A stretch of 64,000 nt of DNA, from assembly GCA_964636505.1 (NCBI GenBank), contig CAZWRY010000002.1, positions 17,248-81,247 on the forward strand, given 5' to 3'. Shown here in pieces: positions 8,112 to 43,745 of the stretch (its first letter is position 1; every line of letters begins with the position of its first letter). The position numbers and the translations under genes are program-made. The notes under the pieces are model-generated. The model did not search any database and had not been told where the DNA came from. It was given only the letters and a program-made list of their open reading frames with translations. The stretch comes from an uncultured Bdellovibrionales bacterium (GTDB lineage Bacteria; Patescibacteriota; Minisyncoccia; Moranbacterales; UBA2206).

Positions 8112-8492
8112 TTATTTTTCTAGGCCCAAACTTTCTTTTATTTTTTTAACAATATCTTCCAAGGCATAGCTGGATTTAATCAAGTAAGTGGTCGCACCCA
8201 GTTCAAATGCTCGATTAACATCCTCGGCACTTTCCAGGTTAGTCAGCAAGATAACCGGTATTTTTTGAGTCTTCTTGTTTTTTTTGATTTCTTCCAAAAC
8301 CTCAAAGCCGTTTTTTTTAGGCAAAATTATGTCCAAAAGAATCAGATCCGGATTCTCTCTTCCTACTAAGGTTATCCCCTCTTCACCATTAAAAGCACTG
8401 ACTGTTTCAAATTTTTCTAAAGTTAAAAATTCCTTCAGGGATTCCTGAAGCGAAACTTCATCTTCAATAATTAATATTTTATATTTTTTCAT
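8112..8492 (-). CDS. Stand-alone CheY-like response regulator receiver protein.
   Basis: 126 aa; ILIIEDE...DLILLDIILP...K signature residues; no output domain. Confidence 0.8.
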   Translation of the reverse strand: MKKYKILIIEDEVSLQESLKEFLTLEKFETVSAFNGEEGITLVGRENPDLILLDIILPKKNGFEVLEEIKKNKKTQKIPVILLTNLESAEDVNRAFELGATTYLIKSSYALEDIVKKIKESLGLEK

Positions 8493-8539
8493 ATATTTTA
8501 AAAAAATAATTTTAAATTTGCATTTTTCAAAAATTACTT

Positions 8540-9481
8540 TCAGGCCGCCGGCAAAGAAATATAAAAAATTGATCCGATATCTTCTTTTGATTTAAACCAT
8601 GTTTTTCCGCCGGATTCTTCAATGATATTTTTCACAATGTATAAACCCAGCCCGGTGCCTTCGGCTCGGTAACGAGACACATTATAGCTCCGAAAAAATT
8701 TGCTAAAAACTTGTTTTTGCTGGCTCCCGGGTATTCCAATACCGTTATCTTTGATGCTAAGGATCCAAAAATTGTTATTTCTCTTGAGTAAGACTTCAAT
8801 TTTACCGTGTTTCCTGGAATATTTTATTGAGTTGCTGAGAAGGTTTTCCACGGCTAGTTTTATTTTTTCCGGATCGCCCACCACCCTCGCCTCCTTTTTG
8901 TTGTTTTTTACGCTAATTTTCATGGAAACTCCGCTATTTTTCAGTAACGGACCTAGGTCATTACCAACTTCTCTCACGATATCAGCTAAGTCAATCTTTT
9001 CTCTTTTTAAAGAAAGTCTTTTTTGGTCAATTCTAGCTACATCCAAAAGATCGCTCACGAGTCTGGACATCCGCTTTGTCAAAACTTCTATATTTTCTAT
9101 GCCTTGCAATTGTCTTTTATTTAAGCCATTTTTAAACTTTGAATTTAAAAGTTCTAACTCCCATTTAATTGCTGAGATTGGCGTCCGCAATTGATGAGAA
9201 GCCAAGGAAATAAATTCGCTTTTAGTTTTATTGAGCCTGTTTACCTGTTCAACTCCTTTAACAACCATGCCTCCAAAAAAGAAAATTGTTATCGTTACAA
9301 TAGTTTCTGATAAAATCAAGACCTCTGGATTATCATAATTTTTAGCAATAAAATAGGTGGCTGTCATCGCCATGGAGTTAACAACGCCTAAAACAATAAA
9401 CAAAAACGATGGAGTTTGCCAAACACTAACACCAAGATCGTTGGCTTGTTTTTTTAGATTTAAATCGTTTATTATTTTCAT
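8540..9481 (-). CDS. Membrane sensor histidine kinase.
   Basis: 313 aa; N-terminal TM helices, H-box SHQLRTPISAI, HATPase_c G-box GTGLGLYIVK. Confidence 0.8.
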   Translation of the reverse strand: MKIINDLNLKKQANDLGVSVWQTPSFLFIVLGVVNSMAMTATYFIAKNYDNPEVLILSETIVTITIFFFGGMVVKGVEQVNRLNKTKSEFISLASHQLRTPISAIKWELELLNSKFKNGLNKRQLQGIENIEVLTKRMSRLVSDLLDVARIDQKRLSLKREKIDLADIVREVGNDLGPLLKNSGVSMKISVKNNKKEARVVGDPEKIKLAVENLLSNSIKYSRKHGKIEVLLKRNNNFWILSIKDNGIGIPGSQQKQVFSKFFRSYNVSRYRAEGTGLGLYIVKNIIEESGGKTWFKSKEDIGSIFYISLPAA

Positions 9482-9585
9482 TTTTGTTTTAGCTCAAACT
9501 TCTTCTGCCTCATTTGCCAGAAGATAAGTTTTTAGCCGAATATTTTATTTTTTGCAAATAAATTATACCACAAAAAACAAATAAC

Positions 9586-9610
9586 AAAAAACGCCTATAG
9601 GGCGATTTTA
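9586..9610 (-). terminator. Rho-independent terminator candidate for the 9633..10589 gene.
   Basis: Near-palindrome CGCCTATAGGGCG followed on the minus strand by a TTTTTT run. Confidence 0.45.
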
Positions 9611-9632
9611 AGACTTACGTATGATTTAAAAT

Positions 9633-10589
9633 TTAACCCAACAGCGACAATTCGCTTAATTTTTTGCAAAATTTTTCATAGGTTTTTACCCCTTGGGGCT
9701 CAGGCAAAAAAACCATTTTTTTATCATTAGCAATAATCACACTCCCGGCCCGATGCGTTCTTGGATCTTTGGCAATTCTTTCCATCTGCCATTTTTTCAA
9801 TCTTTCTTCAATGAAATCGGCTTGAAAAATTTTTTCTCCTATTTTTCTGATTATTTTAGCCGGACAAAAATCTTCCACAAATTTTAAGTTAGATTCTTCA
9901 AAGATACCGTAATTGACTTTATATTTTTTCATCCAAATATTTTTTTCTCTGAATTTTTGGAATGTTTTTGATCCGAAAAGCGGGAGTAAAAAATAATATT
10001 CTGAAGCAGAAAAAAAATATTCCGGTTCGGAAAAATCATCTTTCAAATTGATCTCCAGATATTTTTTATTAAGGAAATGATTGAGACAGGCCCTGTCTTC
10101 TATTTTTGTTCCATATCTTCTTTTGCCCAAAAGATGCACTGTTAAAGTTACCAAAAGTCTGCCGGTAAATATTTTTCTGTTTTTAAGCACGATTAAAAAA
10201 TCCAGATCGCTCTTTTTTTCAGTATTTTTCATTGCCAATCTTCCGCTCACGGCCACCATCCTCACGAAAGGTACAAAACGCAATATTTTTGCTATTTTTA
10301 TGGCTATTTTAAGCTTTTTTTCAGCTATTTTATTTCTTTCCAATCTTTGTTTGACCAAATTTTCCCGACCCCGCAAAAAATAAAAACCTTCCGAAGTGCA
10401 GATAAATCTTCGCAGTTTATCGCCTTCAAGCTCTTTTATGACATTGGCTAAAGTCATTTTTTCTTCCCCTGTTTCAATTGGCTCCATCCGCGTTAAATAT
10501 TTCCAAATTTCAAAAGCCGTCATGGGATAATCCAGGGCATCATAATAGGCCAGGGTAGTAAGAACATACTTGCTTAAATTTGAAGACAT
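9633..10589 (-). CDS. Hypothetical protein with a Pol-beta-type nucleotidyltransferase motif.
   Basis: 318 aa; VAVSGRLAMKNTEKKSDLDFLIV matches the GS-x9-13-DxD nucleotidyltransferase signature; nothing else recognised. Confidence 0.4.
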   Translation of the reverse strand: MSSNLSKYVLTTLAYYDALDYPMTAFEIWKYLTRMEPIETGEEKMTLANVIKELEGDKLRRFICTSEGFYFLRGRENLVKQRLERNKIAEKKLKIAIKIAKILRFVPFVRMVAVSGRLAMKNTEKKSDLDFLIVLKNRKIFTGRLLVTLTVHLLGKRRYGTKIEDRACLNHFLNKKYLEINLKDDFSEPEYFFSASEYYFLLPLFGSKTFQKFREKNIWMKKYKVNYGIFEESNLKFVEDFCPAKIIRKIGEKIFQADFIEERLKKWQMERIAKDPRTHRAGSVIIANDKKMVFLPEPQGVKTYEKFCKKLSELSLLG

Positions 10590-10609
10590 AATTTAAAAAT
10601 TATAAAATT

Positions 10610-13459
10610 CTACAGGTATTTCCCCGTCCAGCTTTTTTTGATTTTTTTGAGCTTGTCCGGTGTACCAGCATAAACAACTTCCCCTCCCTGGTCTCCGCCA
10701 TCCGGTCCCAAATCAATGACCCAATCTGAATTCCTGATCACATCTATATTGTGCTCCACGACCACAACCGTATTGCCTTTATCCACTAGCGCGTCTAACA
10801 CGCCTAATAACATTTTAACATCTTCAAAATGAAGACCGATAGTTGGTTCATCCAAAATATAGAGGGTTTGGCCGGTTGATTTTCTGGCCAATTCCGTAGC
10901 CAGCTTTATTCTTTGCGCTTCTCCGCCGGATAAACTTGTGGCGCTTTGACCAAGCTTAAGGTAGCCCAAGCCCACATCCTCAAGAGTTTTTAATTTTTCA
11001 AAAATCAAAGGCGATTTCTTGAAAAATTTTAAAGCATAAGAAACACTCATGTCCAAAACTTCGGCGATATTGGCTCCTTGATATTCAATATCCAAGGTTT
11101 TACGATTATATCTTGTTCCTCCGCATGATTCACATTTAACATACATATCCGGTAGGAGATACATTTCAATTTTTTTTGTTCCTTCTCCTTGACAATTTTC
11201 GCATCGCCCGCCCTTCATGTTAAAACTAAAACGGCTGGCCGTATAGCCTCTTTTTTTAGCTTCCGGCGTTGCCGCGAAAAGATCGCGAATTAAAGAAAAA
11301 ACACCCGTATAAGTAGCCGCGTTTGACCTTGGTGTCCTTCCAATCGGAGTTTGATTAATGTTAATTACTTTATCAATGTTTTTTATGCCATCAATTTTTC
11401 TGTATTTTCCCGGCACATCCTTGGCTCTATAAAAATATTTGGCCAGATATTTAGCCAAGATATCTGAGACTAACGTTGATTTGCCCGATCCGGAAACACC
11501 CGTGATTGAAACAAATTTGCCCAAAGGAATTTCCACATCAATATTTCTCAGGTTATGCTCGCTGGCGCCGGTTATTTTTATGAATTTTTTATTGCCTTTG
11601 CGATATGTCTTTTTATTCACGACTTTTTTGCGGCCGATAATATAGTCGGCTGTAGCTGTTTTTGACTTGAGAAGCTTTTGAAAATCCCCCTGAAAGATAA
11701 CTTCTCCGCCTTCCTCTCCGGCACCGGGACCCATATCAATAATCCAGTCAGCTTTACGGATAATGTCCTCGTCGTGTTCCACAACTATCAAAGAGTTTCC
11801 GCCTTCTCGCAAAGATTGCATGGTCCCAATTAACTTTTCCGTATCCCGATTATGGAGTCCGATAGAAGGCTCGTCCAAAACATAGGTGATGCCGGTAAGT
11901 TCCGCTCCAATTTGAGTTGCCAAACGAATTCTTTGGGCTTCTCCGCCGGAAATCGATTCTGCCCGGCGAGAAAGAGAAAGATAGTCCAAGCCTACATTTA
12001 TCAGCGCTTCGGTTTTTATCAATATTTCTTTAATAATACCGTTGGCAATTTCTTTCTTGTCCGAACTGTCACAAGAAGCTTTGACTTCTTTTAGAAAAGC
12101 CTTTAGCTTTTCTAGATCCAAATTGACCACATCGTCAATTGATTTTTCACCGATCATAACCGCCAGATATTCCTTTTTTAGTCTTTTGCCTTCACAAGCC
12201 GGACAAACTTTTTCCAACATATATTTTTCCAGGTCGCTGCGGACATATTCAGAAGTTGACTCTTCATATTTTTTCTTAAGAATGGCAGCAACGCCTTCAA
12301 AAGGAACTTCAATCTGCTTAAGTCCGCCCATGTCGTTTTTCTGTTCCACTCTGATCTCTTTTTTGTCCGGTCCATAAAAAATAATTTCCAGAGCTTTAGG
12401 TGAAAGTTTTTTGACCGGAACATCAACAGAAAAAGAATATTCCTTAGCCAAAGCCCTCAAAATATTTAGATAATTGCTCTGTCCGCTCAGTCTTCCGTTA
12501 GATTTACTCCAAGGTAAAATGGCTCCTTCTGAAAGGGTCAGGTTTTTATTTGGGATTACTAAATCCAAATCAACTTCTTTGGTAATTCCAAGGCCGGCGC
12601 AATATCCGCAAGCTCCTTCCGGATTGTTAAAAGAAAAGTGTCTGGGAGTTATTTCATTTATCCTGGTTTGACAAGTATGACAAACAAAATCGCGATTAAA
12701 GACTGAATCTCCTTCTTCTTCGGAAAAAACAATAATAGATCCGCCGCCAACTTTCATGGCTGTTTCAATTGAATCCAAGAGCCTTTCTTCATCCTGGTTT
12801 TCACCCCTAATATTGATTCTATCTACCACCACTTCAATGGCCGAGTTAAACTTATCACTCACAATCAGCAAAGCCTCATTGGTTAACATTATCTTTCCAT
12901 CAAATCTGACTCTGGCGTAACCCAAATGACTGATGCTACGCAAAATTTCACGCGAACTTTTGCCTTCTTCTTTTACTTTAGCCATAATAACTACTTGCGA
13001 ATTTTTGGGAAATTTTAAAATTCTTTCTAAAATTTCCTGGTTGGTTTTCTTGGACATAAGTTCTCCGCAAACCGGACAATAAGGCATTCCGATTTTGGAA
13101 AAAAGAATCCTAAGATAATCATAAATTTCCGTAAGTGTTCCAACAGTTGAACGCGGGCTACGACTCAAACTTTTCTGATCAATGGAAATAGTCGGGCTAA
13201 GATTTTCAATTTTATCCATATCCGGCTTAGCCGCTACATCCAAGAATTGCCGGGCATAGGACGACATTCCCTCCAGATATCTGCGATTGCCTTCCGCATA
13301 AACTAAATCAAAGGCTAAAGATGATTTACCTGAACCTGAAAGCCCGGTTACCACCACCAATTGATTGCGAGGAATATCAATATCCACATTTTTCAGATTA
13401 TTGACTCTGGCCCCGCGAATAATTATCTTATCCCTTGAGGAAGAAACTTTTTTTGACAT
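10610..13459 (-). CDS. uvrA: Excinuclease ABC subunit A (UvrA), copy 1.
   Basis: 949 aa; two ABC modules (GLSGSGKSSLAF..., [11 protein letters not shown]), zinc-finger insertions, LSGGEAQRI signatures. Confidence 0.92.
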   Translation of the reverse strand: MSKKVSSSRDKIIIRGARVNNLKNVDIDIPRNQLVVVTGLSGSGKSSLAFDLVYAEGNRRYLEGMSSYARQFLDVAAKPDMDKIENLSPTISIDQKSLSRSPRSTVGTLTEIYDYLRILFSKIGMPYCPVCGELMSKKTNQEILERILKFPKNSQVVIMAKVKEEGKSSREILRSISHLGYARVRFDGKIMLTNEALLIVSDKFNSAIEVVVDRINIRGENQDEERLLDSIETAMKVGGGSIIVFSEEEGDSVFNRDFVCHTCQTRINEITPRHFSFNNPEGACGYCAGLGITKEVDLDLVIPNKNLTLSEGAILPWSKSNGRLSGQSNYLNILRALAKEYSFSVDVPVKKLSPKALEIIFYGPDKKEIRVEQKNDMGGLKQIEVPFEGVAAILKKKYEESTSEYVRSDLEKYMLEKVCPACEGKRLKKEYLAVMIGEKSIDDVVNLDLEKLKAFLKEVKASCDSSDKKEIANGIIKEILIKTEALINVGLDYLSLSRRAESISGGEAQRIRLATQIGAELTGITYVLDEPSIGLHNRDTEKLIGTMQSLREGGNSLIVVEHDEDIIRKADWIIDMGPGAGEEGGEVIFQGDFQKLLKSKTATADYIIGRKKVVNKKTYRKGNKKFIKITGASEHNLRNIDVEIPLGKFVSITGVSGSGKSTLVSDILAKYLAKYFYRAKDVPGKYRKIDGIKNIDKVININQTPIGRTPRSNAATYTGVFSLIRDLFAATPEAKKRGYTASRFSFNMKGGRCENCQGEGTKKIEMYLLPDMYVKCESCGGTRYNRKTLDIEYQGANIAEVLDMSVSYALKFFKKSPLIFEKLKTLEDVGLGYLKLGQSATSLSGGEAQRIKLATELARKSTGQTLYILDEPTIGLHFEDVKMLLGVLDALVDKGNTVVVVEHNIDVIRNSDWVIDLGPDGGDQGGEVVYAGTPDKLKKIKKSWTGKYL

Positions 13460-13566
13460 ATTAAAAGATTTATTTAATGGGAAATTATTCTAAAAATAAG
13501 TTCCTGTTTGCAATAACTAATAGTACAGCAATCCTTTTTGTTTGTAAACCCCTTATCAACAAAAGA

Positions 13567-13604
13567 AGCCCGGAAAGGATAACGATCCTTTCCGGGCTTT
13601 TTGG
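13567..13604 (-). terminator. Strong bidirectional rho-independent terminator downstream of uvrC.
   Basis: 13-bp perfect stem AGCCCGGAAAGGA / TCCTTTCCGGGCT with a 6-nt loop and T-runs on both strands. Confidence 0.75.
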
Positions 13605-13787
13605 TCTTTCCCAATCAGCCTCAACGGATTCCTCGGACTCCGTTGAGATTTTTTAAATAACCGCTCTTATCATCTTCCTAACCTCCCTCTTGGATTTGGA
13701 TTTGGTTTTTCCCCGTTTTTCCGGGCTCCGGCTCCATTAGCCTCCTTTCTTAGGATTTTTGGCAACTCTCTTTTTATCCTATTTTAC

Positions 13788-15086
13788 TTATTTTGTCAAG
13801 AATTCGCTTTTTCTCATCTTTCTGTGATATCCAATTGCAAAACGATGCGCTTCATCTATGATTCTACCTAATAACTCTCTATCGTCTGCTATTTTTTTAA
13901 AATCATTTGAAAATTCTGTAATTGGAAATTGCTTGCCCGCTGGGCACAGCCAGAGATCAGAAATTAGAAATTGGAAATTGGAAGTTTTTCGTGTAGGACC
14001 CTTGGCAACAGCAATAATCGGAACTTTTATTCCTAAGCTCCTTAATAATTTCTCTGCCATGTTTAAGTGTCCTTGCCCTCCATCCAAGAGAATCAAGTGA
14101 GGCATCGGCCAATCATTTTTAAATCTACGTAGCAGCACCTCTTGCATCATTCCGATATCATTAATGCCCTCAACGGTTCTGATTTTGAATTTTCGGTACT
14201 GAGATTTGTTTGGCTGGCCTCCCTCAAAAACCACCATGGAGCCGACTGCGTTTTTTCCGCTAATATTGGAAATGTCGTACGCTTCAATACGAATAGTTTT
14301 TAGTTTATGTTTTTTAGTTTTTAGATCAATTTCAAAATCTTTTGAAATCAAAGCCACATCACGAATATGATTTAGCGCAAAAACTTTATTTCTTATTTCC
14401 GCCGCCTTTTCAAATTCATGATTCTTGGCTGCTAACTGCATTTCTTTTTCCAGTGTTTTAACCAGATTTTTTTTCTTACCTTCCAAAATCATCTGGATAC
14501 CATGGATATTTTTTTGATAATCTTTGAGAGTAATTGCACCGGCGTGTGGTCCCGGACAAAGTCCCAACTGAAAATCCAAACAGCCTTTTTCGGTTTCCTG
14601 CTTATTGGAATGAAAGGGGAAAATACGGCGAATTATTTTGAGCGCTACCTCCATTTGTTTTTTAAAAGTATATGGACCAAAAGCAGTTCGTAGTTTATAG
14701 TTTTTGGTTTGTAGTTTTTTAAAATCAATTTCCGTTTTTCGTAAAATCAAAACTCGCGAAAATTCTTCTTTAGTAATAACGAAATAGGAAAATGATTTAT
14801 CATCTTTAAGTTCAATGTTATATTTCGGCTGATATTTTTTGATCAAATTGCTTTCCAAAATCAAAGCCTCCAGAACAGAATCAGTCTTTTGAAAGTCAAT
14901 ATCGGCAACTTTCGGCATCATAACTTCAATATGATTTCTGGTTTCCGCGCCCCGAAAGTACGAAGCCACCCGGCTTTTTAAATTAGTTGCTTTTCCAATA
15001 TATAAAATATTTTTGGCTTTATCTTTGAAAATATATACTCCGGGATCTGATGGCAATTTGGCAATTTTTATTTTCATCTTTGACAT
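13788..15086 (-). CDS. uvrC: Excinuclease ABC subunit C (UvrC), short form without the C-terminal HhH2 domain.
   Basis: 432 aa; N-terminal GIY-YIG (PGVYIFKDKAKNILYIGKATNLKSRV), UVR domain (EFEKAAEIRNK), RNase H-like endonuclease region (RIEAYDISNISG...LLDGGQGHL...HRFAIGYHRK). Contains in-frame heptamer-repeat insertions. Confidence 0.85.
   Translation of the reverse strand: MSKMKIKIAKLPSDPGVYIFKDKAKNILYIGKATNLKSRVASYFRGAETRNHIEVMMPKVADIDFQKTDSVLEALILESNLIKKYQPKYNIELKDDKSFSYFVITKEEFSRVLILRKTEIDFKKLQTKNYKLRTAFGPYTFKKQMEVALKIIRRIFPFHSNKQETEKGCLDFQLGLCPGPHAGAITLKDYQKNIHGIQMILEGKKKNLVKTLEKEMQLAAKNHEFEKAAEIRNKVFALNHIRDVALISKDFEIDLKTKKHKLKTIRIEAYDISNISGKNAVGSMVVFEGGQPNKSQYRKFKIRTVEGINDIGMMQEVLLRRFKNDWPMPHLILLDGGQGHLNMAEKLLRSLGIKVPIIAVAKGPTRKTSNFQFLISDLWLCPAGKQFPITEFSNDFKKIADDRELLGRIIDEAHRFAIGYHRKMRKSEFLTK
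13921..13985. repeat. Miniature heptamer-repeat element inside uvrC, in frame: ATTGGAAATTG, a GC-rich hairpin segment, then AGAAATT AGAAATT GGAAATT GGAAG.
   Basis: Shares the 11-mer ATTGGAAATTG and AGAAATT tandem units with the rpoB-rpoC spacer at 60730..60775, and a GGCAAG-containing GC-rich segment with the uvrB insertion at 21855..21880. Confidence 0.7.
14295..14324. repeat. AGTTTTT-type heptamer tandem array (4 units) inside uvrC.
   Basis: AGTTTTT AGTTTAT GTTTTTT AGTTTTT; a second array lies at 14685..14720. Confidence 0.6.
14685..14720. repeat. AGTTTWT heptamer tandem array (5 units) inside uvrC.
   Basis: AGTTCGT AGTTTAT AGTTTTT GGTTTGT AGTTTTT; encodes the Lys-rich KKLQTKNYKL segment. 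Confidence 0.6.
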
Positions 15087-15130
15087 TTCTTAAAAATAAT
15101 TATAGCTTAATTCTAGCACCTTAAAACAAT

Positions 15131-15526
15131 ATGCCAAAGAAAGGAGACAGTATGTGCATGATGTATCCGGTACCGTCAAAAAAATGCGTTTTTGGGCCTG
15201 ATTTTAAGGCTGTAATTGAACATTTGCTCATGCACTTTAAAGTACATGAGTTGTATTTTTGTCGACCTGGAAATGACTGCTTGATCGTCTATCCGAGAGA
15301 AAATGTTCCTTTTAAAGTTACTGAGCCCCTGGAATTCTTTTATGACTCCGAGCAAAAGAAAAGAGGAATAATCAGCCCGGGAACCTATTTCATAAAAGAA
15401 CATTCTGTTTTTCCGTCGGGCCATCAACTGGTCTTGCAAAAAAACAACGCGGATAACCGGCTTCTCCCTTGTTTTACCTGGAAAGATGGCCCGGGCATTG
15501 ATTGGAGAGGAATAACAGCACAATAA
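15131..15526 (+). CDS. Hypothetical protein (cassette gene 1); probable start at 15152 after a GGAG ribosome-binding site.
   Basis: 131-aa ORF on the opposite strand from the flanking uvr genes; AAAGGAGAC precedes the ATG at 15152 by 7 nt; locally GC-richer; no recognisable domain. Confidence 0.5.
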   Translation: MPKKGDSMCMMYPVPSKKCVFGPDFKAVIEHLLMHFKVHELYFCRPGNDCLIVYPRENVPFKVTEPLEFFYDSEQKKRGIISPGTYFIKEHSVFPSGHQLVLQKNNADNRLLPCFTWKDGPGIDWRGITAQ

Positions 15527-15545
15527 ATTCTTAAAGGAGAAAAAA

Positions 15546-15857
15546 ATGCAGATAATAGAAGAAGTATTGCTGGAAGATTTAAGAGCAGGCGATATTCTGC
15601 TTTATGAAGTCAAAAGCGACGGCAGTTTTATCCTTGAAGCCTTTAGGCAAAATTGCCTATCGGGAGAAACGTCAACTTATTTCAGAGTGTTTTTTGATGA
15701 TTACTTCATCAAAAAACTTTGGGAACACCACTGCTACAATCAACCGGGCAGTCACAACGCTTTTATTAAATCTCTGGCTGATTGGGTTGCCTTAAAAGGG
15801 GTGGTTATGACCGAACGTCAACTTTGGCCTAAGTATCCGCTCTGCAAGGTGTCCTAA
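15546..15857 (+). CDS. Hypothetical protein (cassette gene 2).
   Basis: 103 aa; AAAGGAGAAAAAA then ATG; 19-nt gap after gene 1; followed by a terminator. Confidence 0.5.
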   Translation: MQIIEEVLLEDLRAGDILLYEVKSDGSFILEAFRQNCLSGETSTYFRVFFDDYFIKKLWEHHCYNQPGSHNAFIKSLADWVALKGVVMTERQLWPKYPLCKVS

Positions 15858-15864
15858 CCGACGA

Positions 15865-15903
15865 AAAGCGCAGCTTCTTATCAAGAGTTGCGCTTTTTAT
15901 TTT
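15865..15903 (+). terminator. Rho-independent terminator of the two-gene cassette.
   Basis: Stem AAAGCGCA / TGCGCTTT, 16-nt loop, then a TTTATTTT run. Confidence 0.55.
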
Positions 15904-15938
15904 CCCAAAAAAATTCAGAAAAATGTTTAACTCTGTTT

Positions 15939-18824
15939 TTATTTTTTCAAAACATCCCCGAGATATTTAGCAGTGTAACTTTCCTTTTGATATTTGATAA
16001 TTTCTTCCGGCGTTCCGCTTACAATGACTCGCCCGCCTTGCTCTCCGCCTTCCGGTCCCAAATCAATAATCCAGTCAGCTGTTTTGATAATGTCCATATT
16101 GTGCTCAATAACCACCACGGTATTGCCGGCATCAACTAATTTATTAAGTACGCCTAAAAGTTTTTTAATGTCATCAAAATGAAGACCCGTCGTCGGCTCA
16201 TCTAAAATATACAGCGTGTTTCCGGTTGAACGGCGCGCCAGTTCTGTGGCTAATTTTATCCTTTGCGCTTCTCCGCCGGAAAGAGTTGTGGCTGATTGGC
16301 CCAAATGAATATAGTCCAGTCCGACTTCTTCCAAAATTTTAAGCTTGTCATGAATTTCTGGAAAATTTTCAAAGAAAATTTTGCCTTCTGAAACCGTCAT
16401 TTCCAAAACATCGGCAATATTTTTACCTTTATATTTTACTTTCAGAGTTTCACTGTTGTATCTTTTGCCTTTGCAGACATCGCAAGGCAAATAAACGTCT
16501 GGCATAAACTGCATTTCAATTTTCAAAAATCCTTCGCCTTGGCAATTTTCACATCTTCCCCCATTTACATTAAAGGAGAATCTCCCTGGCAAATATCCCT
16601 TGGCTTTAGCATCTTTAGTTTTGGCAAAAAGTTCTCTGATCGGAGAAAAAAGCCCTGTGTAAGTGGCAGGATTAGAACGCGGAGTGCGACCGATTGGAGA
16701 TTGATCAATCATAATTACTTTATTGACATGTTGCGACCCAATTATTTCCGAATGTTTCCCTGGACGATCCAATGATCGCATTATCTTTGAAGCTAAAGAT
16801 TTATACAAAACATCTTCTACTAGAGTTGATTTTCCTGATCCGGAAACTCCAGTCACAACAGTCAAAACTTTGAGTGGAAATTCCACGGTAATATTTTTTA
16901 GATTATTTTCTCTAGCTCCACGCACCACAATCATTTTTTTATTTTTAATCGGACGACGAAAACTGGGGACTTCAATTTTTTCTTCACCACTAAGATATCT
17001 GGCCGTTAAAGATTTTTTGCTTTTCATCACTTCTTGAGGAGAACCTTCGGCCACAATTTCTCCGCCCGCTTTACCTGCGCCTGGACCAATATCAACTAAA
17101 TAATCCGCAGCTCTAATCGTTTCCTCATCATGTTCAACCACAATCAAAGTATTTCCGATATCACGTAAATCCAAAAGTGTTTTTAATAATTTTTTATTAT
17201 CCCGCGCATGCAGACCGACTGATGGCTCATCCAAAATATATAAAACTCCGACTAATTGCGATCCGATTTGAGAAGCCAAACGAATTCTTTGCGTCTCTCC
17301 TCCAGCCAAAGTGGCCGCTGATCTTCCCAGCGTTAAGTATCCAAGGCCAACATTATCCAAAAATCCCAAACGCGCTTCAATTTCTTTCAAAATTCTGCCC
17401 GCAATCAAATCTTCTTTTTTGCTGAGTTTTAATTTTTTGAAAAAATCCAAAGCTTCACTCACACCGACGGTAGAAACTTCGTAGATATTCTTCCCGCTAA
17501 CGGTCACCAGCAAAGCTTCCTTCTTGTATCTTGAGCCATGGCAAACCGAACAAGGATTTTGCGACATATATTTTTCAATGTCTTTTCTCACTCCATCTGA
17601 ATCAGTTTTTGCGTAGCGATCTTCCAAATATCCGGTTATGCCCCGCCAATTCAAATTATATTTCCAAACCGAACCGGTTTTACTGCGCAAAGTTACCGGA
17701 ACTTCTTCGGCTTCTTCTGCCGAAATCGGACAATAAGCATTTTCTTCGCCATAGAGCAAAATATTCAAATTTTCTTGGGATAAATCTCTGATACGAACAT
17801 TATCTTTGATATGAAAATGATTGGTCACCGCTCGTAGAATCGTGCCTTGCCAATTATTTTTTTTGTAGCTCCAAGGCATTATTCCGCCCTCGGCAATCGT
17901 TTTGTTTTTATCAGGAATCACCAAATTAATACCCATTTCTTTTTTAGTTCCCAATCCCTCACAAACCGGACAAGCCCCATAAAGAGAGTTAAAAGAAAAA
18001 AGTCTCGGTTCCATTTCCGGAAAATTTATTTCGTCATGAACCGGACAAGATAATTTTTGATTAAAAATAAGTTCCGCTTCTTTTTGCTTCCTATCTCTTG
18101 TTCCTTGTTTCTTTATTTTCACCAGCCCATCCGACAACTTCAAGGCCTTTTCAGTATCTTCAAAAATACGAGGAATATTTTCATCACTAATAGCCATCGT
18201 ATCCACTACAACATCAATTGTGTGTTTTTTGTATCTATCTAAAGTTATTTTTTCTTTAGGATTAAGCTCAACTTTTTTGCCATTAACATAGGCTTTGGAA
18301 TAACCGCGGCGATACATATCCAAAAGAAGGGCTGAGTATTCACCTTTGCGTCCGCGTACAATCGGACTCAGAATTTCAATTTCTTTTTTATCGCCGACAC
18401 TTAAAATACGATCCACAATTTCATCCGTGGAAAGCTTGGTTATTTCTCGTCCACAAATCGGACAATGAGGAATACCAATTTTGGCATAAAGCAAACGCAA
18501 ATAATCATGAATCTCTGTCACCGTTCCGACAGTTGACCTCGGATTATGCGAAGCTGATTTTTGATCAATAGAAATTGCCGGCGAAAGACCCTCAATGTAG
18601 TCCACATTTGGTTTGTCCATTTGCCCCAAAAATTGCCGAGCGTAACTGGACAAACTTTCCAAATATCGTCTCTGGCCTTCGGCAAAAATAGTATCAAAAG
18701 CTAGCGTTGATTTTCCGCTACCGGAAATCCCCGTAAATACAACAAATTTATTGCGCGGCAAATTCAGATTTATATTCTTAAGGTTATGCTCTCTCGCCCC
18801 GCGAATGATGATTTCGTCTTTCAT
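15939..18824 (-). CDS. uvrA: Excinuclease ABC subunit A paralogue (UvrA, copy 2), full length.
   Basis: 961 aa; same architecture as copy 1 ([23 protein letters not shown], zinc fingers) but clearly diverged in sequence. Confidence 0.9.
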
Positions 18825-18891
18825 ATTTTATTACCTTAAGGCAAATTACATTATATTATTTTAAGGAACTTTAATCAAGCCCATAAAAATC

Positions 18892-18932
18892 AAAAAGGCA
18901 TTGACTGATATTGCATGTCAATGCCTTTTTTT
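18892..18932 (-). terminator. Bidirectional rho-independent terminator after the 18945..19919 gene.
   Basis: Perfect 9-bp stem GGCATTGAC / GTCAATGCC flanked by A- and T-runs. Confidence 0.7.
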
Positions 18933-18944
18933 GCGTTTGCGAAA

Positions 18945-19919
18945 TTATTCCATCAGGACTAGGATCTTCCCCCTGATTTCAGCCTTTTTGGCCTCCATAA
19001 CGGAGAGGAATTTTTGGGCCGCCGCTAGCTCATCCTCCAGCCTCCGAACATTTTCGGCCAGGTTTTTTGTCTCGGTCTGAAACTCTACATATTCAGCCGA
19101 AAGAACTTCCAATTCCGTCTTGGCCGGTTCTTTTTGCTCGGAATTAAGACTGGGTATCTCCGCTTTTTTCTGTTCCTGATCCGAATGTCCAGCTTGTATA
19201 TCTTTTTGTAAGCCAAGAAGTTTTTGTCCCTTCTCAGCCAAAGAGAAATAAACTTTTATACGAGAAGTGGACGCCACTTTCTCAATATATCTCTCCTTTT
19301 CCAAAAATTTCACAGCCTGGGTTTCTGAACACTTGATACCCAGAGAAACAATAGTCTTCTTCAGCTGGCTCTGAAGAATCCTGCCGAACTCCGCCATCTG
19401 GACCTCCAGGAGAATAACCTTTATAGTTTCTTCGTCCAGAACATCGGCCACTATCCTCCGCGTAAAAAGCAGAGGGGCTTCTGTTAGGGCTGGAATTCCA
19501 GATGCAACTCTGCCCGCATTGTTTGCTCTCATCTTTTCTTGTCCCCTTTCTCCTTTTTTTATTTTATTTTTCTTTTCGTTCCGAAGATTAAATTCAACTT
19601 CGGCCTTTTTTAACAGATTAAAGAAGCTTTGTTCTTTTTCCGTATAGCCTTCCGGACGGAAAAAGAAGCAGTTAAACCGAGTCCCATTATCTCCCGGCTT
19701 CACTGCCACAACAACTGACCCTCTCTTGGGGTCTATTCTTTTAACTTCCAGCGGGCAGCAATGGGCAGAGCCTTTGATTTGCTCACCCAGATGAATATTT
19801 AATTCATAATCTTTTCTGTCAAACTGGACCAGTTCGAGGAACTCCTCAAGCAATTTCAACATTCCTTTCGGAATGTCTGTTGAGTGGGGTCCCTTCTTTA
19901 TACAAACTCTTTTTACCAT
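18945..19919 (-). CDS. Hypothetical protein: Cys-containing N-terminal domain, central winged-helix-like segment, C-terminal coiled coil. GC-richer than its neighbours.
   Basis: 324 aa; segment AEFGRILQSQLKKTIVSLGIKCSETQAVKFLEKERYIEKV...YFSLAEKG resembles a MarR/ArsR-type wHTH; heptad-rich tail; about 47% GC against about 35% in flanking genes. Confidence 0.5.
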   Translation of the reverse strand: MVKRVCIKKGPHSTDIPKGMLKLLEEFLELVQFDRKDYELNIHLGEQIKGSAHCCPLEVKRIDPKRGSVVVAVKPGDNGTRFNCFFFRPEGYTEKEQSFFNLLKKAEVEFNLRNEKKNKIKKGERGQEKMRANNAGRVASGIPALTEAPLLFTRRIVADVLDEETIKVILLEVQMAEFGRILQSQLKKTIVSLGIKCSETQAVKFLEKERYIEKVASTSRIKVYFSLAEKGQKLLGLQKDIQAGHSDQEQKKAEIPSLNSEQKEPAKTELEVLSAEYVEFQTETKNLAENVRRLEDELAAAQKFLSVMEAKKAEIRGKILVLME

Positions 19920-20058
19920 CCCTCGCTTCCTCCTTTCTCCTTTGAGTATTTTGTTGTTCAGGTACAGCTTGAAAATTTAGCATAAATTGGCTAAAAAGTC
20001 AAGAAAAAAGCCCTGAGCATTTCTGTCTAGGGCTCTAAAAAGTCTTTATTTAAAGGTT

Positions 20059-21015
20059 TTATTGGCAACTGCCACCTTGTGTTGTGGTGGTTGCCGAACT
20101 TAAAACCTTGGCACATTCGGCTGGAGCTTTGTTGAAAGCACTGCAAATGGCTTTTTTGTAGCCTTCTGAATCGCCATAGGAATATACGACATTTGATAAA
20201 ACCTCGTTAATTAAAAATGTTGGCGAGCCATTGGCTCCCGCCGCATTTGAAACTTTTTCGTTTTCTTTCATAAGAGTAACGCCTTGAGAGGATACACAAC
20301 TATTAACCGCAGCTACACTCAGGCCAGCATTTTTAATTCCGGCCTCCCAACAAGATCCATCGCTACTACAATTTTTGTTTATATAAGACACAAATGTAAA
20401 CCATTTATCTTTGCCATAGGTTTTTAAAACACAAGCTTCTCTTTCATTTTGAGCCACTTCCTTATCGCCATGCAAAGATCGAATGGCATCACCTTCAGAA
20501 TTTACAATATAGTGAAAATTGAAATTAACTTTATTCTTTAATAAATCATAAACGGGCTTTAATGTGTCTTCGGCTTTATTGCCAAAAGGACAAAAACTCA
20601 TTGTATATAGGTCAACTGTCGGCTTGTCATTTTTCGGAATTTCCATATTGGCTTTCTGCGCTGCCGCTTGTTGCTGGTTTTTCATCTCCTGAATTTTTTT
20701 CTTAATTTCATCAATATTAATTGCTTCCGGAAAAAATAATTTTCCGTCTTTGGTTGCATAGGATTCAACTTCTTGTTGCCCGTCATTCAAACTGATAGCT
20801 ATTTTATATATTCCGTTTTCCGAAACAACCTTTTTAATTTCGGCTTTCATTCCAGCTTGCAACAAGTTTTCATTGATAAAAGACTCCATGTTAACTTTGA
20901 CTTCTTCAGGACTCATCTGTAAAGAACTTCCTTTGATGGTAAGTAACGGACGACTGCAACCGGTAACAACGATCGCAGCCAGAGCTACAAATATCAATAT
21001 GCCTGTTTTTTTCAT
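20059..21015 (-). CDS. Lipoprotein of unknown function.
   Basis: 318 aa; signal peptide with lipobox VVTGC|S. Confidence 0.6.
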   Translation of the reverse strand: MKKTGILIFVALAAIVVTGCSRPLLTIKGSSLQMSPEEVKVNMESFINENLLQAGMKAEIKKVVSENGIYKIAISLNDGQQEVESYATKDGKLFFPEAINIDEIKKKIQEMKNQQQAAAQKANMEIPKNDKPTVDLYTMSFCPFGNKAEDTLKPVYDLLKNKVNFNFHYIVNSEGDAIRSLHGDKEVAQNEREACVLKTYGKDKWFTFVSYINKNCSSDGSCWEAGIKNAGLSVAAVNSCVSSQGVTLMKENEKVSNAAGANGSPTFLINEVLSNVVYSYGDSEGYKKAICSAFNKAPAECAKVLSSATTTTQGGSCQ

Positions 21016-21090
21016 GTTTTTTGCTATAATTTATTAATTAAGATTTGGCTTTTTCTATTTTAGGCTAAATAGAAAATTAAGGCAAACACA

Positions 21091-23142
21091 TCATTTTACC
21101 TTCAATTTTCGTAACTCGGAGATTTCATCGCGAATAATAGCCGCACTTTCAAACTGAAGACTGCGAGCCGCTTCTTTCATATCCTTTTCTCTTTGCTTAA
21201 TATACCCCGCAATGTTTTCCAGGCTTTCCAAATTGACAAATTCTTTGGAAATTTCCGGTTTGATTTCATGATCCACAATAGATTGAATTTTTTTCTGAAT
21301 AGTCTGAGGAGTAATGTGATGCTTTTTATTATACTCAGCTTGAATTTTTCTTCGGCGATTGGTTTCATCAATCGCTCGCTTCATTGAACCGGTAATTTGA
21401 TCGGCATACAAAATAACCCGCCCGGAAACATTTCTGGCCGCACGTCCGATTGTTTGAATAAGTGAAGTTTCACTGCGCAAAAATCCTTCCTTATCCGCAT
21501 CCAAAACCGCTACTAATTTAACTTCCGGCAAATCCAGTCCTTCACGCAATAAGTTTACTCCAACCAGAACATCAATTTCCCCCCGACGCAATTTTTCCAA
21601 AATTCTGACCCGATCCAAGGTTTCCACATTAGAATGCAAATATTCCGCTTTGATTTTATTTTCCTTTAAGAAATCGGATAAATCTTCGGCCATTTTTTTG
21701 GTAAGCGTCGTAATTAAAACTCGACCATTATCCTCCACTACTTTTCCAATTTCAATTAAAACATCTTTGACTTGTCCTTGGGTTGATTTTATCGCGAGCT
21801 CAGGATCAATGAGACCTGTTGGACGAATAACTTGCTCCACAATACCGTATTTTGCATCTTGCCTACCGGCGAGACAGATATTTTTTAATTTGTTTTTAAT
21901 TTGCGATTTGGAATTTATTTGGAATTTAGAATTTAGAATTTGTGATTTGATATATTCATACGGCCCAGGTGTCGCTGAAGTAAAAATTACCTGGTTTGTT
22001 TTTTCTTCAAATTCAGAAAATCTGAGCGGACGATTTTCATAGGCACTGGGCAAACGAAAACCATTATCAATCAAAGCGGTCTTGCGAGCCCGATCACCAT
22101 TAAACATGGCATTCAGCTGCGGCACGGTCACATGCGATTCATCAATGACCAAAAGATAGTCTTTATTAAAGTAATCCATCAATGTATATGGCGGTTCGCC
22201 TTTTTTTCTTTCAGTCAAATACAAAGAATAATTTTCAATACCATTGCAATAGCCGACTTCGCGCATCATTTCAATGTCCTGCTTGGTTCTTCTTTTCAAT
22301 CTTTCCGCTTCCAATAATTTATTTTCTTTTTTCAAATAAGCGACTCTGCCTCGCATCTCTATCTCTATCCTTTTTAATGCTTCTTCCATCAAGCCTTCAG
22401 GAACCACAAAATGTTTGGCTGGATAAATCAAAGTTTGTTTCAAGGTTCCCAGCTCTTCACCGGTCAAAAAATCATATTCCACAATTTTCTTTACCCTGCC
22501 CTTTTCAGCATTAATTCTGGTCACAATTTCGCGATCTGTCGGCATAATTTCCAATGTTTCACCGGTAAGTCTGAATTTGCCGCGGCTAAGCAATTCGCTT
22601 CTTTGAAACTGCATATCAATCAACTCTTTTATTTTTTCTTCTCGTTTGAATTCTTCGCCCACTTTTACTTCAAAACTGATATCCCGATAAAAATCCGGCG
22701 AACCCAAACCATAGATACAAGAAACAGAAGCCACAATAATCACATCACTCCGTGAAAGCAAGGCGGAAGTTGAAGCATGGCGCAAACGATCAATTTCATC
22801 ATTAATCTGCGCCTCTTTTTCAATATATGTGTCCGAAGAAGCGATGTAGGCTTCCGGCTGATAATAGTCATAGTAAGAAACAAAATATTCCACCGCATTC
22901 TTGGGAAAAAACACGCGAAATTCTTGCGCCAATTGGGCTGCCAAAGTTTTGTTGGGCGCAATCACCAAGGTTGGTTTTTGTACTTTTTCAATGACATTGG
23001 CAATTGTGAAAGTTTTACCCGATCCCGTCACACCCAAAAGCGTCTGGAATTTTTGTCCCTTTTTGAGTCCTTCCGTCAGCTTTTTAATCGCCTCTGGCTG
23101 ACTTCCGGCCGGTTTAAATTTTTTATTCAGAATAAATTTCAT
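21091..23142 (-). CDS. uvrB: Excinuclease ABC subunit B (UvrB) carrying an in-frame insertion of about 28 aa.
   Basis: 683 aa; helicase motifs (GVTGSGKT, DESH), beta-hairpin region, C-terminal UVR domain (FESAAIIRDEI). The insertion YIKSQILNSKFQINSKSQIKNKLKNICLAGRQDAKYG lies between ...SATPGPYE and IVEQVIRPTGL. Confidence 0.92.
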   Translation of the reverse strand: MKFILNKKFKPAGSQPEAIKKLTEGLKKGQKFQTLLGVTGSGKTFTIANVIEKVQKPTLVIAPNKTLAAQLAQEFRVFFPKNAVEYFVSYYDYYQPEAYIASSDTYIEKEAQINDEIDRLRHASTSALLSRSDVIIVASVSCIYGLGSPDFYRDISFEVKVGEEFKREEKIKELIDMQFQRSELLSRGKFRLTGETLEIMPTDREIVTRINAEKGRVKKIVEYDFLTGEELGTLKQTLIYPAKHFVVPEGLMEEALKRIEIEMRGRVAYLKKENKLLEAERLKRRTKQDIEMMREVGYCNGIENYSLYLTERKKGEPPYTLMDYFNKDYLLVIDESHVTVPQLNAMFNGDRARKTALIDNGFRLPSAYENRPLRFSEFEEKTNQVIFTSATPGPYEYIKSQILNSKFQINSKSQIKNKLKNICLAGRQDAKYGIVEQVIRPTGLIDPELAIKSTQGQVKDVLIEIGKVVEDNGRVLITTLTKKMAEDLSDFLKENKIKAEYLHSNVETLDRVRILEKLRRGEIDVLVGVNLLREGLDLPEVKLVAVLDADKEGFLRSETSLIQTIGRAARNVSGRVILYADQITGSMKRAIDETNRRRKIQAEYNKKHHITPQTIQKKIQSIVDHEIKPEISKEFVNLESLENIAGYIKQREKDMKEAARSLQFESAAIIRDEISELRKLKVK
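21845..21952. repeat. Miniature heptamer-repeat element inside uvrB, in frame: a GC-rich segment plus a GGAATTT / AGAATTT tandem array.
   Basis: GATTTGGAATTTATTTGGAATTTAGAATTTAGAATTTGTGATTTG plus GCCTACCGGCGAGACAG; the encoded ICLAGRQ parallels LCPAGKQ encoded by the uvrC element. Confidence 0.65.
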
Positions 23143-23333
23143 TGCTATATTTTATTTAGAACAGAACTTACACGTTTGACAATAAAAATCTGTCTCGGAG
23201 GCGTGAATTTGAAATTGATTGTTTCATGCCGTAGCACAGATTTTTAGGGGCAAACATGTGAGTTCTTTGGAATTTGATTTTATTAAAAATAAAATTCATA
23301 TTTTATTTGATAACCAATAATACTCCAAAGAAA

Positions 23334-23363
23334 CAAAAAAATCCAGGTTCACTGGATTTTTTG
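23334..23363 (-). terminator. Rho-independent terminator downstream of the mannose-1-P guanylyltransferase gene (bidirectional).
   Basis: Stem ATCCAG / CTGGAT, loop GTTCA, flanked by A7 and T6 runs. Confidence 0.6.
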
Positions 23364-23366
23364 TTT

Positions 23367-24407
23367 CTACAAATATTTTTCCAAACCCTTTTCTCTCATA
23401 TCTTTTACCAGATCTGAGATTTGGACTACTTTGTCTTTTGGAACCACTACAATCGCATCTTTGGTGTTGACCACTACCATGCCCTCCAGGCCAACAGTCG
23501 CCACGATTTTTTCATTTTCCAAATTATAGACCAAGGAATCTTTAGTTTTAAAATCAACCACATTGCCCATGACCACATTATCCTCTATCTTTTTAGCCAG
23601 CGCTTCTTTCAGAGCATAGAGTGTCCCCGGATCGCTCCAGCCCATATCCGTCTTTAAAATCACCGCGCTGGAAAGATCCACTTTTTCAATAATAGCATTA
23701 TCAAAAGATATTTTGGGCGCTTCTTCATAATTTCCTTGCGTAACTTTCCCGTAAACTTCCGGCGCCAATTTTTGATAACATTCTGTCAGAAATGAAACAG
23801 AGGTTATAAAATATCCCGGATTCCAAAAATATTCTCCCGAGGAAAAAATTTCATTGCAAACTTCTTGCTCCGGCTTGTATTTCCAACCCAAAAAAGAATA
23901 GAATTCTCTGCCCCCGATTTCTCCCGCTTTCTTTCCCAATTTCATCCAGCCCAAATTATTATTGGCAAATCTTGGTTTTTCAGCAATAAAAATAAATCTG
24001 TTTGGATTTTGCTCAATTAGTTTTTCTCCCGATTGAAGTGCCTTTTGAAATTCTTCCACTTTGTCCATTAAATGGTCCGCCCAAACAATAGCCATAGCTC
24101 CGAAATATCCCAATCCAGAAAGTTTATTGAGAGCAAAACAAACAGCTGGCCCAACATCGCGCCTGGCTGGTTCCAAAAAAATATTTTCTGCCGGCAACTC
24201 TGGCAATTGAGACTTGATATTTTCGGCATATTTTTCATTTGTCTGCACATAAATATTTTCAGCGCCAAAAACAGGCGCCACCCTTTCAAAAGCTAATTGG
24301 ATAGTAGACTTTCCATTAAAAATTTTATCAAATTGTTTTGGCGAATTTTCTCGGCTTATCGGCCAAAGCCTGGTCCCCGCCCCGCCAGCAAAAATTATAA
24401 TCTTCAT
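23367..24407 (-). CDS. Mannose-1-phosphate guanylyltransferase (GDP-mannose pyrophosphorylase).
   Basis: 346 aa; N-terminal IIFAGGAGTRLWPISR nucleotidyl-transferase signature. Confidence 0.8.
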   Translation of the reverse strand: MKIIIFAGGAGTRLWPISRENSPKQFDKIFNGKSTIQLAFERVAPVFGAENIYVQTNEKYAENIKSQLPELPAENIFLEPARRDVGPAVCFALNKLSGLGYFGAMAIVWADHLMDKVEEFQKALQSGEKLIEQNPNRFIFIAEKPRFANNNLGWMKLGKKAGEIGGREFYSFLGWKYKPEQEVCNEIFSSGEYFWNPGYFITSVSFLTECYQKLAPEVYGKVTQGNYEEAPKISFDNAIIEKVDLSSAVILKTDMGWSDPGTLYALKEALAKKIEDNVVMGNVVDFKTKDSLVYNLENEKIVATVGLEGMVVVNTKDAIVVVPKDKVVQISDLVKDMREKGLEKYL

Positions 24408-24743
24408 AGACTTTATGACTTTAGACTTGTTATCTTATGTTATAATTAAAACATAATGAACAAGAAATTAAAAGCCGAAAAACGCGAAGCCAAAAAGAAG
24501 CCTAAAATGAAAATTTCCGGCCGGAGTGTTTTTGGTTTAAAAGCAATTATCATCAAAAAGGCTAGAAAAACATCCCGACAGTAAGTTTAGTCGTATATAA
24601 TTTTAGAGGCTTATTGCAAAAAGTATAAATAGAGTTTTATTCATATCAATTCGGCTCTAAAATTATATGCAACTAAGCTTGCCTCTTGCTAATTGGAGTC
24701 AATTGACTAAATAACCTAGATATGCTAAGCTGGGATAAGTTAT

Positions 24744-25103
24744 ATGAGCATAATAATCCGAATTTTGGCTAATTCACTGGCTATTTTGATAGCCGCAAGA
24801 CTTATTCCAGGGTTCGTTTTCTCGGGTGATATTTTGAATTTACTTATCGCCGGAGCAGTTATCGGGCTCATAAATTCCATTGTAAAACCAGTCTTACAGA
24901 TTCTTTCTTTTCCGATCATTCTCCTGACCCTAGGACTTTTTAACCTGTTAATTAACATTTTTCTTCTGTTTCTGGCAGCCAGATTTTTGCCGGATCTCCA
25001 TATTCAAACTTTCTGGGCCGCTTTCTGGGGAGTTATCATTATCAGTTTCACTAACTACCTCATTTCATATTTGAGTAAACCAAGGAAAACTGATGAGACT
25101 TAA
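24744..25103 (+). CDS. DUF360 / phage-holin-4-like small membrane protein.
   Basis: 119 aa; four predicted TM helices; MSIIIRILANSLAILIAARLIPG N-terminus typical of the family. Confidence 0.55.
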   Translation: MSIIIRILANSLAILIAARLIPGFVFSGDILNLLIAGAVIGLINSIVKPVLQILSFPIILLTLGLFNLLINIFLLFLAARFLPDLHIQTFWAAFWGVIIISFTNYLISYLSKPRKTDET

Positions 25104-25123
25104 CCTATTAAACTAACGCTAAA

Positions 25124-25360
25124 ATGCTGCGAATTTTAAATATAATAGAAATAATTGTGGCCATTGTTCTGACCATTTCCATTCTCTTGCAAAACAGAGG
25201 TGCCGGACTAAGCGGAACATTCGGAGGAGATTTTGGTGGATATTATAGTAAAAGAGGGTTTGAGAAATTTCTGGTTTCTTTTTCTATTCTTCTTTCCATT
25301 TCCTTTATTCTTTTGGCTATAGCCAACTTTATTCTTTCAAGCAAAATCACTAATCAGTAA
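25124..25360 (+). CDS. secG: Preprotein translocase subunit SecG.
   Basis: 78 aa; two TM helices flanking LLQNRGAGLSGTFGGDFGG...KRGFEKFL. Confidence 0.7.
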   Translation: MLRILNIIEIIVAIVLTISILLQNRGAGLSGTFGGDFGGYYSKRGFEKFLVSFSILLSISFILLAIANFILSSKITNQ

Positions 25361-25468
25361 TTCAAGTATATTAGTAACGACACTTTTCAAAAATGGCCAA
25401 TTATAAATAAGTGGCCAAAAATACACAATATTCTAGATCTCAAAGAAAAGATTATCTTTTATTTTCTT

Positions 25469-43731: not shown

Positions 43732-43745
43732 TTAACTTTGCCCAG

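Follow-up and report, generated by a model that had tools for sequence, protein, structure and literature searches.

A conserved pair of diverged, full-length UvrA genes in an excision-repair gene cluster of Moranbacteria

Canonical class-I UvrA proteins, such as those of E. coli, G. stearothermophilus (PDB 2R6F), M. tuberculosis (PDB 3ZQJ) and the 'Ct' UvrA of C. thermophilum (PDB 9GXK), carry a full domain set with catalytic motifs, and second UvrA genes are known in other bacteria. Class-II UvrA proteins (D. radiodurans UvrA2, PDB 2VF7; DrrC; Ecm16, PDB 7SH1) are paralogues that stand beside a canonical UvrA, are thought to be specialised, and are without the UvrB-binding domain (PMC3167621). 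Two full-length uvrA genes, 42% identical, have been described in Porphyromonas gingivalis (PMC3747172), and PG1036 belongs to a uvrA-PG1037-pcrA operon of that species. Tandem-fused double UvrA proteins (NF001885, about 1800 amino acids, aa) join two different UvrA modules in one organism, which suggests cooperation. In the present work, two full-length uvrA genes, uvrA-1 and uvrA-2 (proteins A1 and A2), were analysed in a nucleotide excision repair (NER) gene cluster of an uncultured bacterium assigned by GTDB to Moranbacterales. The cluster lies in a stretch of 64,000 nucleotides of contig CAZWRY010000002.1 (assembly GCA_964636505.1, positions 17,248 to 81,247), which is called the window and whose own numbering is used throughout. 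The pair extends a known theme and does not open a new one.

Eleven open reading frames (ORFs) were listed in the region. The four uvr genes, all on the minus strand, were identified unambiguously by Pfam and NCBIfam scans, and their coordinates, lengths and strands as given in an earlier annotation of this DNA (the sequence-only reading) were correct by the ORF list and both scans. The two uvrA genes were separated by 2.5 kb holding uvrC and other ORFs. The genes on which the comparison rests, together with the ORF that follows uvrA-1, were as follows:

10610-13459, minus strand: uvrA-1 (A1 type, divergent class-I architecture), 949 aa, 1320 bits with NF001503
15939-18824, minus strand: uvrA-2 (A2 type, canonical class-I), 961 aa, 1457 bits with NF001503
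13788-15086, minus strand: short uvrC, 432 aa, identified by Pfam and TIGR00194 (344 bits, cut-off 285)
21091-23142, minus strand: uvrB, 683 aa, 967 bits with NF003673 (cut-off 743), the sole UvrB gene of the cluster
9633-10589, minus strand: predicted nucleotidyltransferase ORF, 318 aa, Pfam Polbeta E 0.008 (below threshold) plus a motif

Both UvrA copies were found to be full-length and of class-I architecture, as the sequence-only reading had proposed, and the truncated class-II type was excluded by the UvrB-binding domain present in both. Compared to the UvrA equivalog cut-offs (1147 bits for NF001503 and 730 bits for TIGR00630), both copies scored higher with each model, reaching 1260 bits (A1) and 1390 bits (A2) with TIGR00630. 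Each copy aligned end to end with the UvrA of G. stearothermophilus (PDB 2R6F), and both matched PF17755 (the DNA-binding insertion domain) and PF17760 (the UvrB-binding domain, E 4e-21 and 7e-28). The window pair was aligned with 62 A1-type and 27 A2-type relatives, with 18 UvrAs from other phyla and with the proteins of E. coli, Bst and 'Ct'. Both ATPase sites had intact Walker A, Walker B, signature and H-loop motifs in the window pair and in both clades; signature 1 of A2 often read LAGGE, a variant also present in canonical UvrAs. The three zinc modules were intact in both clades with every ligand pair present, and zinc module 1 was CxxC...CxxH in A2, compared with CxxH...CxxC in the Bst and E. 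coli proteins. In E. coli numbering, K37 and K646 belong to the ATPase sites, R216 and E222 to the contact with UvrB and Mfd, and R712 and R730 to DNA binding (PMC3025350), and all six residues were retained in both clades. R216 and E222, the only mapped UvrB-contact residues that were used (PMC3025350), were kept by 98% of A1-clade and 100% of A2-clade members.

Compared with the nearest species representative (L005), the ratio of nonsynonymous to synonymous substitution rates (dN/dS) was 0.033 for uvrA-1, 0.042 for uvrA-2, 0.077 for uvrB and 0.136 for uvrC, values that are rough since dS was near saturation. In this comparison uvrA-1 was the most conserved gene of the cluster. Both copies are under strong purifying selection. 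The opinion that neither of them is a decayed duplicate was thus borne out by the UvrB-contact residues and Walker motifs, which were all kept, and by the low dN/dS of both genes. On every class-I feature that can be judged from sequence, both window UvrAs would be assigned to this class, except that A1 deviates where canonical UvrAs have their dimer interface.

A1 and A2 of the window were 49% identical over their full length, a marked divergence that had also been stated earlier. The pair shares the full domain set and catalytic motifs of the canonical class-I proteins, and it differs from them in that two such genes occur in one genome and that both UvrB-binding domains are unusually divergent. 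With the class-II proteins it has in common that paralogues are found together; the window copies, however, have the UvrB-binding domain, and class-II structures aligned with them only from about residue 273 onward. The resemblance to P. gingivalis lies in two uvrA genes per genome with roughly 40-50% identity, and in one copy being the presumed NER enzyme, with a second copy whose part is unclear and whose linkage is to other genes. The lineage and the neighbours are different, as A1 of Moranbacteria has uvrC upstream and a predicted nucleotidyltransferase downstream, and the likeness to PG1036 is drawn from its published description. Unlike the tandem-fused proteins, the window UvrAs are separate ORFs with putative promoters of their own, and they scored 666 and 697 bits with NF001885, compared to a cut-off of 3054.

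A cryo-electron microscopy study of UvrA published in 2025 defined the subunit contacts of ATP-binding domain I as R54-L507, S58-I85, Y55-Y55, Y55-A84, Y55-P83, F66-F66, G80-M508, L81-L507 and P83-V510, and the residues inserted into DNA as Y62, Q65 and F66 (PMC12796330). In the same study F755 forms the tip of the zinc-finger hairpin, where the tips stack across the dimer and adjoin a possible flipped-out base (PMC12796330). The C. thermophilum ('Ct' UvrA) numbering was confirmed in our alignment, with 16 of 16 named residues matched. The uvrA-2 product had all 19 of the dimer, DNA-insertion and hairpin-tip residues defined by structure, and the A2 clade kept each of the residues named in that study. 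Differently, A1 departed from the canonical proteins at four interface positions and at the hairpin tip, and the replacements were S58G (81% of the clade), G80N (100%), A84T/P (93%), V510I (93%) and F755L (98%). Positions 58, 80, 84, 510 and 755 were each 100% invariant in 21 canonical proteins. The corresponding residues of the window uvrA-1 product were G64, N86, T90 and I524 at the interface and Leu768 at the hairpin tip. A1 retained Y55, F66, L81, P83 and L507, and position 508 was M, S or T. Among the database matches, N at position 80 was found in 120 of 120 A1-type proteins and L at position 755 in 117 of 120, while G80 and F755 were kept in all 120 A2-type proteins. These results indicated that A1 represents a distinct lineage, in which the subunit interface and the hairpin tip have been remodelled.

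Among 406 alignment columns that were invariant in the 18 canonical UvrAs, 54 were replaced in the A1 clade and 31 in the A2 clade. The identity of the UvrB-binding domain to canonical UvrAs was 30% for A1 and 35% for A2, compared to 54% among the canonical proteins. Twelve invariant columns were replaced in both clades, against a chance expectation of about 4; 7 of these lay in the UvrB-binding domain, and 8 were changed to the same residue. The UvrB of the window carried an insertion of about 30 residues (about 401-432) between the halves aligned to solved UvrB structures, and its domain-2 motifs were altered from FRVRGD to FRLTGE and from VEFFGDEI to INAEKGRV. Taken together, the shared replacements and the altered UvrB domain 2 were read as adaptation of both paralogues to the same unusual UvrB, with which they fit. 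Separate roles of the two copies are plausible as well, since at residues that are invariant elsewhere each clade has fixed replacements of its own. To this extent the earlier suggestion of sub-functionalisation may stand, but nothing points specifically to the drug or intercalator resistance offered with it as an example.

UvrAs from KSB1, Zixibacteria, Latescibacterota, Edwardsbacteria and further phyla were 53-56% identical to A2 and 50-53% to A1, and A1 and A2 were 45-50% identical to each other. In neighbour-joining trees of amino-acid and Dayhoff-6 recoded alignments (100-200 bootstraps), the A2-type clan was recovered with 100% bootstrap and the A1-type clan, including P0374, with 98-100%. 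A1 and A2 appeared as sisters with a bootstrap of only 12-23%, and the placement of A2 relative to the canonical UvrAs and A1 was not fixed by the trees. In an exhaustive search of 50%-identity representatives with A1, four single-length proteins were found, none closer than 51%. The nearest representatives of UvrA-1 (P0241-P0389) were mostly double-length tandem UvrA fusions of 1600-2300 aa, and the fused double UvrAs with names came from Chloroflexota and Heimdallarchaeota. No sign of a recent duplication or of a donor lineage for A1 was detected in the trees or in this search. A recent duplication was thus not supported, given that A1 and A2 are as distant from each other as either is from other phyla and that their sisterhood received such low bootstrap values. 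On this evidence A1 and A2 are judged to be anciently diverged, with A1 a separate lineage and A2 of the canonical type.

A single, differently diverged UvrA (P0387) was observed at the equivalent chromosomal spot in a related genome (L088, 10001-12838), with SecG, a holin-like gene, a solute-binding protein and RNase J as neighbours. It retained G80 and F755, and its DNA-insertion and interface residues were heavily altered (Y62D, Q65K, F66M). It may thus represent a third type of diverged UvrA within the group.

The best database matches of both copies were Candidatus Moranbacteria, Moraniibacteriota or Parcubacteria by name, and among the matches listed the two copies had separate orthologue sets, with 65-89% identity for A1 and 74-86% for A2. 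When one genome per GTDB species was scanned, the A1-type gene was detected in 64 species representatives, mostly named Moranbacteria or Parcubacteria. Thirty-eight A1 loci had at least 9 kb of upstream sequence, and this flank held A2 in 24, uvrC in 28 and uvrB in 17 of them. The immediate upstream neighbour of A1 was uvrC in 25 of 52 loci, and the 318-aa nucleotidyltransferase-like ORF was located 3' of A1 in 39 of 53. The usual order was uvrA-2, uvrC, uvrA-1 and predicted nucleotidyltransferase, which two independently assembled contigs repeated in detail. A distant genome (L086, GCA_041583775.1) contained an A2-type UvrA, a small gene, a 417-aa UvrC, an A1-type UvrA and a homologue of the 318-aa ORF. 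Its A1-type protein was 51% identical to A1 of the window and had 11 of 17 A1 signature residues, its A2-type protein had 5 of 6 A2 signature residues, and its homologue of the 318-aa ORF was 32% identical. As the same order was found in so distant a genome, the arrangement is considered old and lineage-wide.

Dozens of assemblies, made independently in different studies, carried the A1/A2 pair on a single contig, which shows that it is not an assembly artefact. The duplication had earlier been regarded as unusual for a small genome; with A1 in 64 species representatives and A2 within 10 kb of it in 24 of 38 loci, it is a conserved trait and not an oddity of one genome. A search of the available literature gave no paper on the number of uvrA copies in Patescibacteria. 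The genomes of the candidate phyla radiation (CPR), or Patescibacteria, are highly reduced, and the retention of a second repair gene of 2.9 kb by strong purifying selection throughout the order argues for a real, non-redundant function.

The reading towards which we lean, with a confidence slightly above an even chance, is that of two homodimeric sensors, in which the interface changes would bar mixing of A1 with A2, the Leu-tipped A1 would probe DNA differently, and both proteins would hand over to the single UvrB. A2 (15939-18824) would be the ordinary housekeeping damage sensor, and A1 (10610-13459) a specialised second sensor, which keeps its zinc modules and the residues in contact with UvrB and Mfd and is predicted to retain ATP hydrolysis and DNA binding. 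A1 would pair with itself and not with A2, its somewhat different probing of DNA might give another lesion range or stringency, and the UvrB that it loads would be the one used by A2, with incision by the short UvrC to follow. Self-pairing of A1 is favoured by the changes at the G80-M508 pair and at V510 inside A1, with A2 unchanged, and separate expression is supported by the own terminator and promoter context of uvrA-1 and of uvrA-2. Several observations weigh against two sensors that share one UvrB. The UvrB-binding domain was the most diverged domain, in which A1 and A2 from one genome were only 25% identical; in Bst numbering, K159, G160 and E161 were lost and K197-H198 deleted in A1, and R178 and R206 were lost in A2. 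Because the two domains are so dissimilar and have lost different residues, one copy could bind UvrB poorly, or another partner instead. The replacements shared by both clades are conservative and could have arisen by convergence, and the interface changes fit a heterodimer equally well. Moreover, on a comparison set of A1-type and A2-type relatives and UvrAs of other phyla, A1 may have originated by old duplication or by transfer.

An obligate A1:A2 heterodimer would be an asymmetric sensor with two different UvrB-binding domains, one Phe tip and one Leu tip, and thereby the unfused counterpart of the fused double UvrAs. We regard it as unlikely, even though uvrA-1 and uvrA-2 are co-located in most genomes, the fixed changes of A1 coincide exactly with the subunit interface and with the hairpin tips, which meet across the dimer (contacts from PMC12796330), complementary invariant residues were lost in the two UvrB-binding domains, and the widespread double-length fusions give a precedent for cooperation of two different UvrA modules. 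The G80-M508 contact was changed on both sides within A1, as was V510 (V510I), and A2 was unchanged, a pattern that looks like a co-evolving self-contact. The self-contacts Y55-Y55 and F66-F66 were retained in both copies, separate promoters and terminators were predicted rather than translational coupling, and no A2 was found within 10 kb in 14 of 38 loci. If the heterodimer were true, the sensor itself would have an inbuilt means to discriminate between strands or lesions, alongside an unusually minimal UvrC without (HhH)2. Alternatively, A1 could act outside excision repair and without UvrB, either in class-II-like clearance of DNA-bound drugs or adducts or together with the downstream nucleotidyltransferase. 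The tight linkage to the latter gene, the 54 replaced invariant residues compared to 31 in A2, the divergent UvrB-binding domain and the second full-length UvrA of P. gingivalis in a non-NER operon (PMC3747172) are consistent with such a role. It is nevertheless rather improbable, as A1 scored above the UvrA equivalog cut-off, had uvrC immediately upstream in 25 of 52 loci, and kept the whole UvrB-binding domain, which the known non-NER UvrAs have lost (PMC3167621), with R216 and E222 in 98% of the clade. The idea that the second copy is redundant, is decaying or arose through faulty assembly or binning had the bare fact of duplication and nothing more on its side and is taken as refuted: dN/dS was 0.03-0.04 in both copies with A1 the most conserved gene of the cluster, the catalytic and zinc motifs were all intact, and both genes lay on one contig in many independent assemblies.

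A1 differs naturally from canonical UvrA at the ATP-modulated dimer interface and at the base-probing hairpin tip, and could serve as a test case for lesion specificity. The A1/A2 pair offers another for how paralogous dimers stay apart or pair, and the lineage one for excision repair with a UvrC that is without the (HhH)2 domain. In E. coli UvrC, the (HhH)2 domain is required for 5' incision on many substrates. The UvrC of the window was composed of GIY-YIG, UVR and RNase-H-like nuclease domains without (HhH)2, and in the alignment to solved C-terminal halves it ended about 5 residues past the RNase-H-like nuclease domain. All 38 complete UvrCs from related loci were 411-495 aa long and likewise without (HhH)2, so the short UvrC is a lineage trait. 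Compared with L005, UvrC of the window was only 62% identical (uvrC of L005 at 8258-9619), and the identities of UvrA-1, UvrA-2 and UvrB were 93%, 86% and 86%, respectively. The best UvrC match, with 72% identity, was that of L061, whose UvrA-1 was only 64% identical. The identity of UvrC being out of step with that of UvrA-1 in these two genomes suggests that uvrC was exchanged between Moranbacteria lineages.

The transcription signals found around the two uvrA genes were as follows:

18850-18878, minus strand: TTGATT-17-TATAAT, a promoter-like site immediately upstream of uvrA-2 (10 of 12 matches in the consensus scan; read from sequence)
about 18890-18932, minus strand: terminator-like hairpin after a 324-aa ORF (read from sequence)
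13566-13599, minus strand: intrinsic-terminator-like hairpin after uvrC (terminator scan; 15 pairs, then a T run)
13520-13548, minus strand: promoter-like site TTTACA-17-TACTAT for uvrA-1 (consensus scan; both hexamer regions conserved in L005)

The hairpin after uvrC was kept in L005 with changes on both arms. The uvr genes are predicted to form a cluster rather than one operon, because terminator hairpins and promoter-like sites precede both uvrA-1 and uvrA-2. The SOS-type box GAAC-N4-GTTC gave fewer matches than expected by chance, and none at the uvr promoters. The spacer between uvrC and uvrA-1 (13460-13787) was 328 bp long, compared to 381 bp in L005 and about 65-125 bp in other relatives. 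It folded better than shuffled controls (z = -3.6), its first 60 bp were conserved with L005, and it contained a second hairpin at about 13625-13665, upstream of the terminator, with no Rfam match. This spacer may represent a small RNA or a leader.

The 318-aa ORF at 9633-10589 starts 20 bp past the end of uvrA-1, and the two genes are probably co-transcribed. Its product showed a winged-helix-like N-terminus and a Pol-beta-type G-S...D-x-D motif (GRLAMKNTEKKSDLDF). There were 591 homologues, every named one from Moranbacteria or Parcubacteria, some of which are labelled 'predicted nucleotidyltransferase' by the Joint Genome Institute (JGI). The AlphaFold model (predicted local distance difference test, pLDDT, 63, mediocre) gave no significant fold match in the PDB, and the nucleotidyltransferase label is drawn only from the sub-threshold Pfam Polbeta match and the motif.

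The remaining genes of the cluster region were as follows:

20059-21015, minus strand: probable thioredoxin-like lipoprotein, 318 aa (translated N-terminus of the lipoprotein type; weak match to Pfam GILT, E 5e-8)
18945-19919, minus strand: strain-specific ORF, 324 aa, with a coiled-coil C-terminus and without family match (gene called in the source record)
15131-15526 and 15546-15857, plus strand: two small strain-specific ORFs, 131 and 103 aa, without family match (called in the source record)

With regard to the layout, the strands of the uvr genes in the sequence-only reading were right, and the two-ORF insert that it had placed on the minus strand proved to lie on the plus strand. Its order with uvrA-2 directly before uvrB was not maintained either, as two more minus-strand genes (18945-19919 and 20059-21015) intervene. 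No homologue of the ORFs at 15131-15857 or at 18945-19919 was found in any of 84 related loci. In other genomes the uvrA-2/uvrC junction contained different small genes, such as a PaaX-like gene in L003, and variable inserts seem to have a hot spot here. The lipoprotein gene occupied the same position, in the gap between uvrB and uvrA-2, in many relatives (tblastn against related loci), and we think that it is unrelated to repair. The two flanking 318-aa genes were considered as possible paralogues, which was rejected since they are unrelated to each other.

No tRNA was detected in the window, and an Rfam scan of 9000-25500 gave no match. The rest of the window was ordinary chromosome, with rpoB, rpoC, ftsK, type IV pilus genes and RNase J. 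At 42000-50000, the GC and AT skew was reversed over a block of plus-strand genes, inside which a large serine recombinase with Resolvase, Recombinase and zinc-ribbon domains is encoded (45720-47360, plus strand). This block may be an integrated mobile element.

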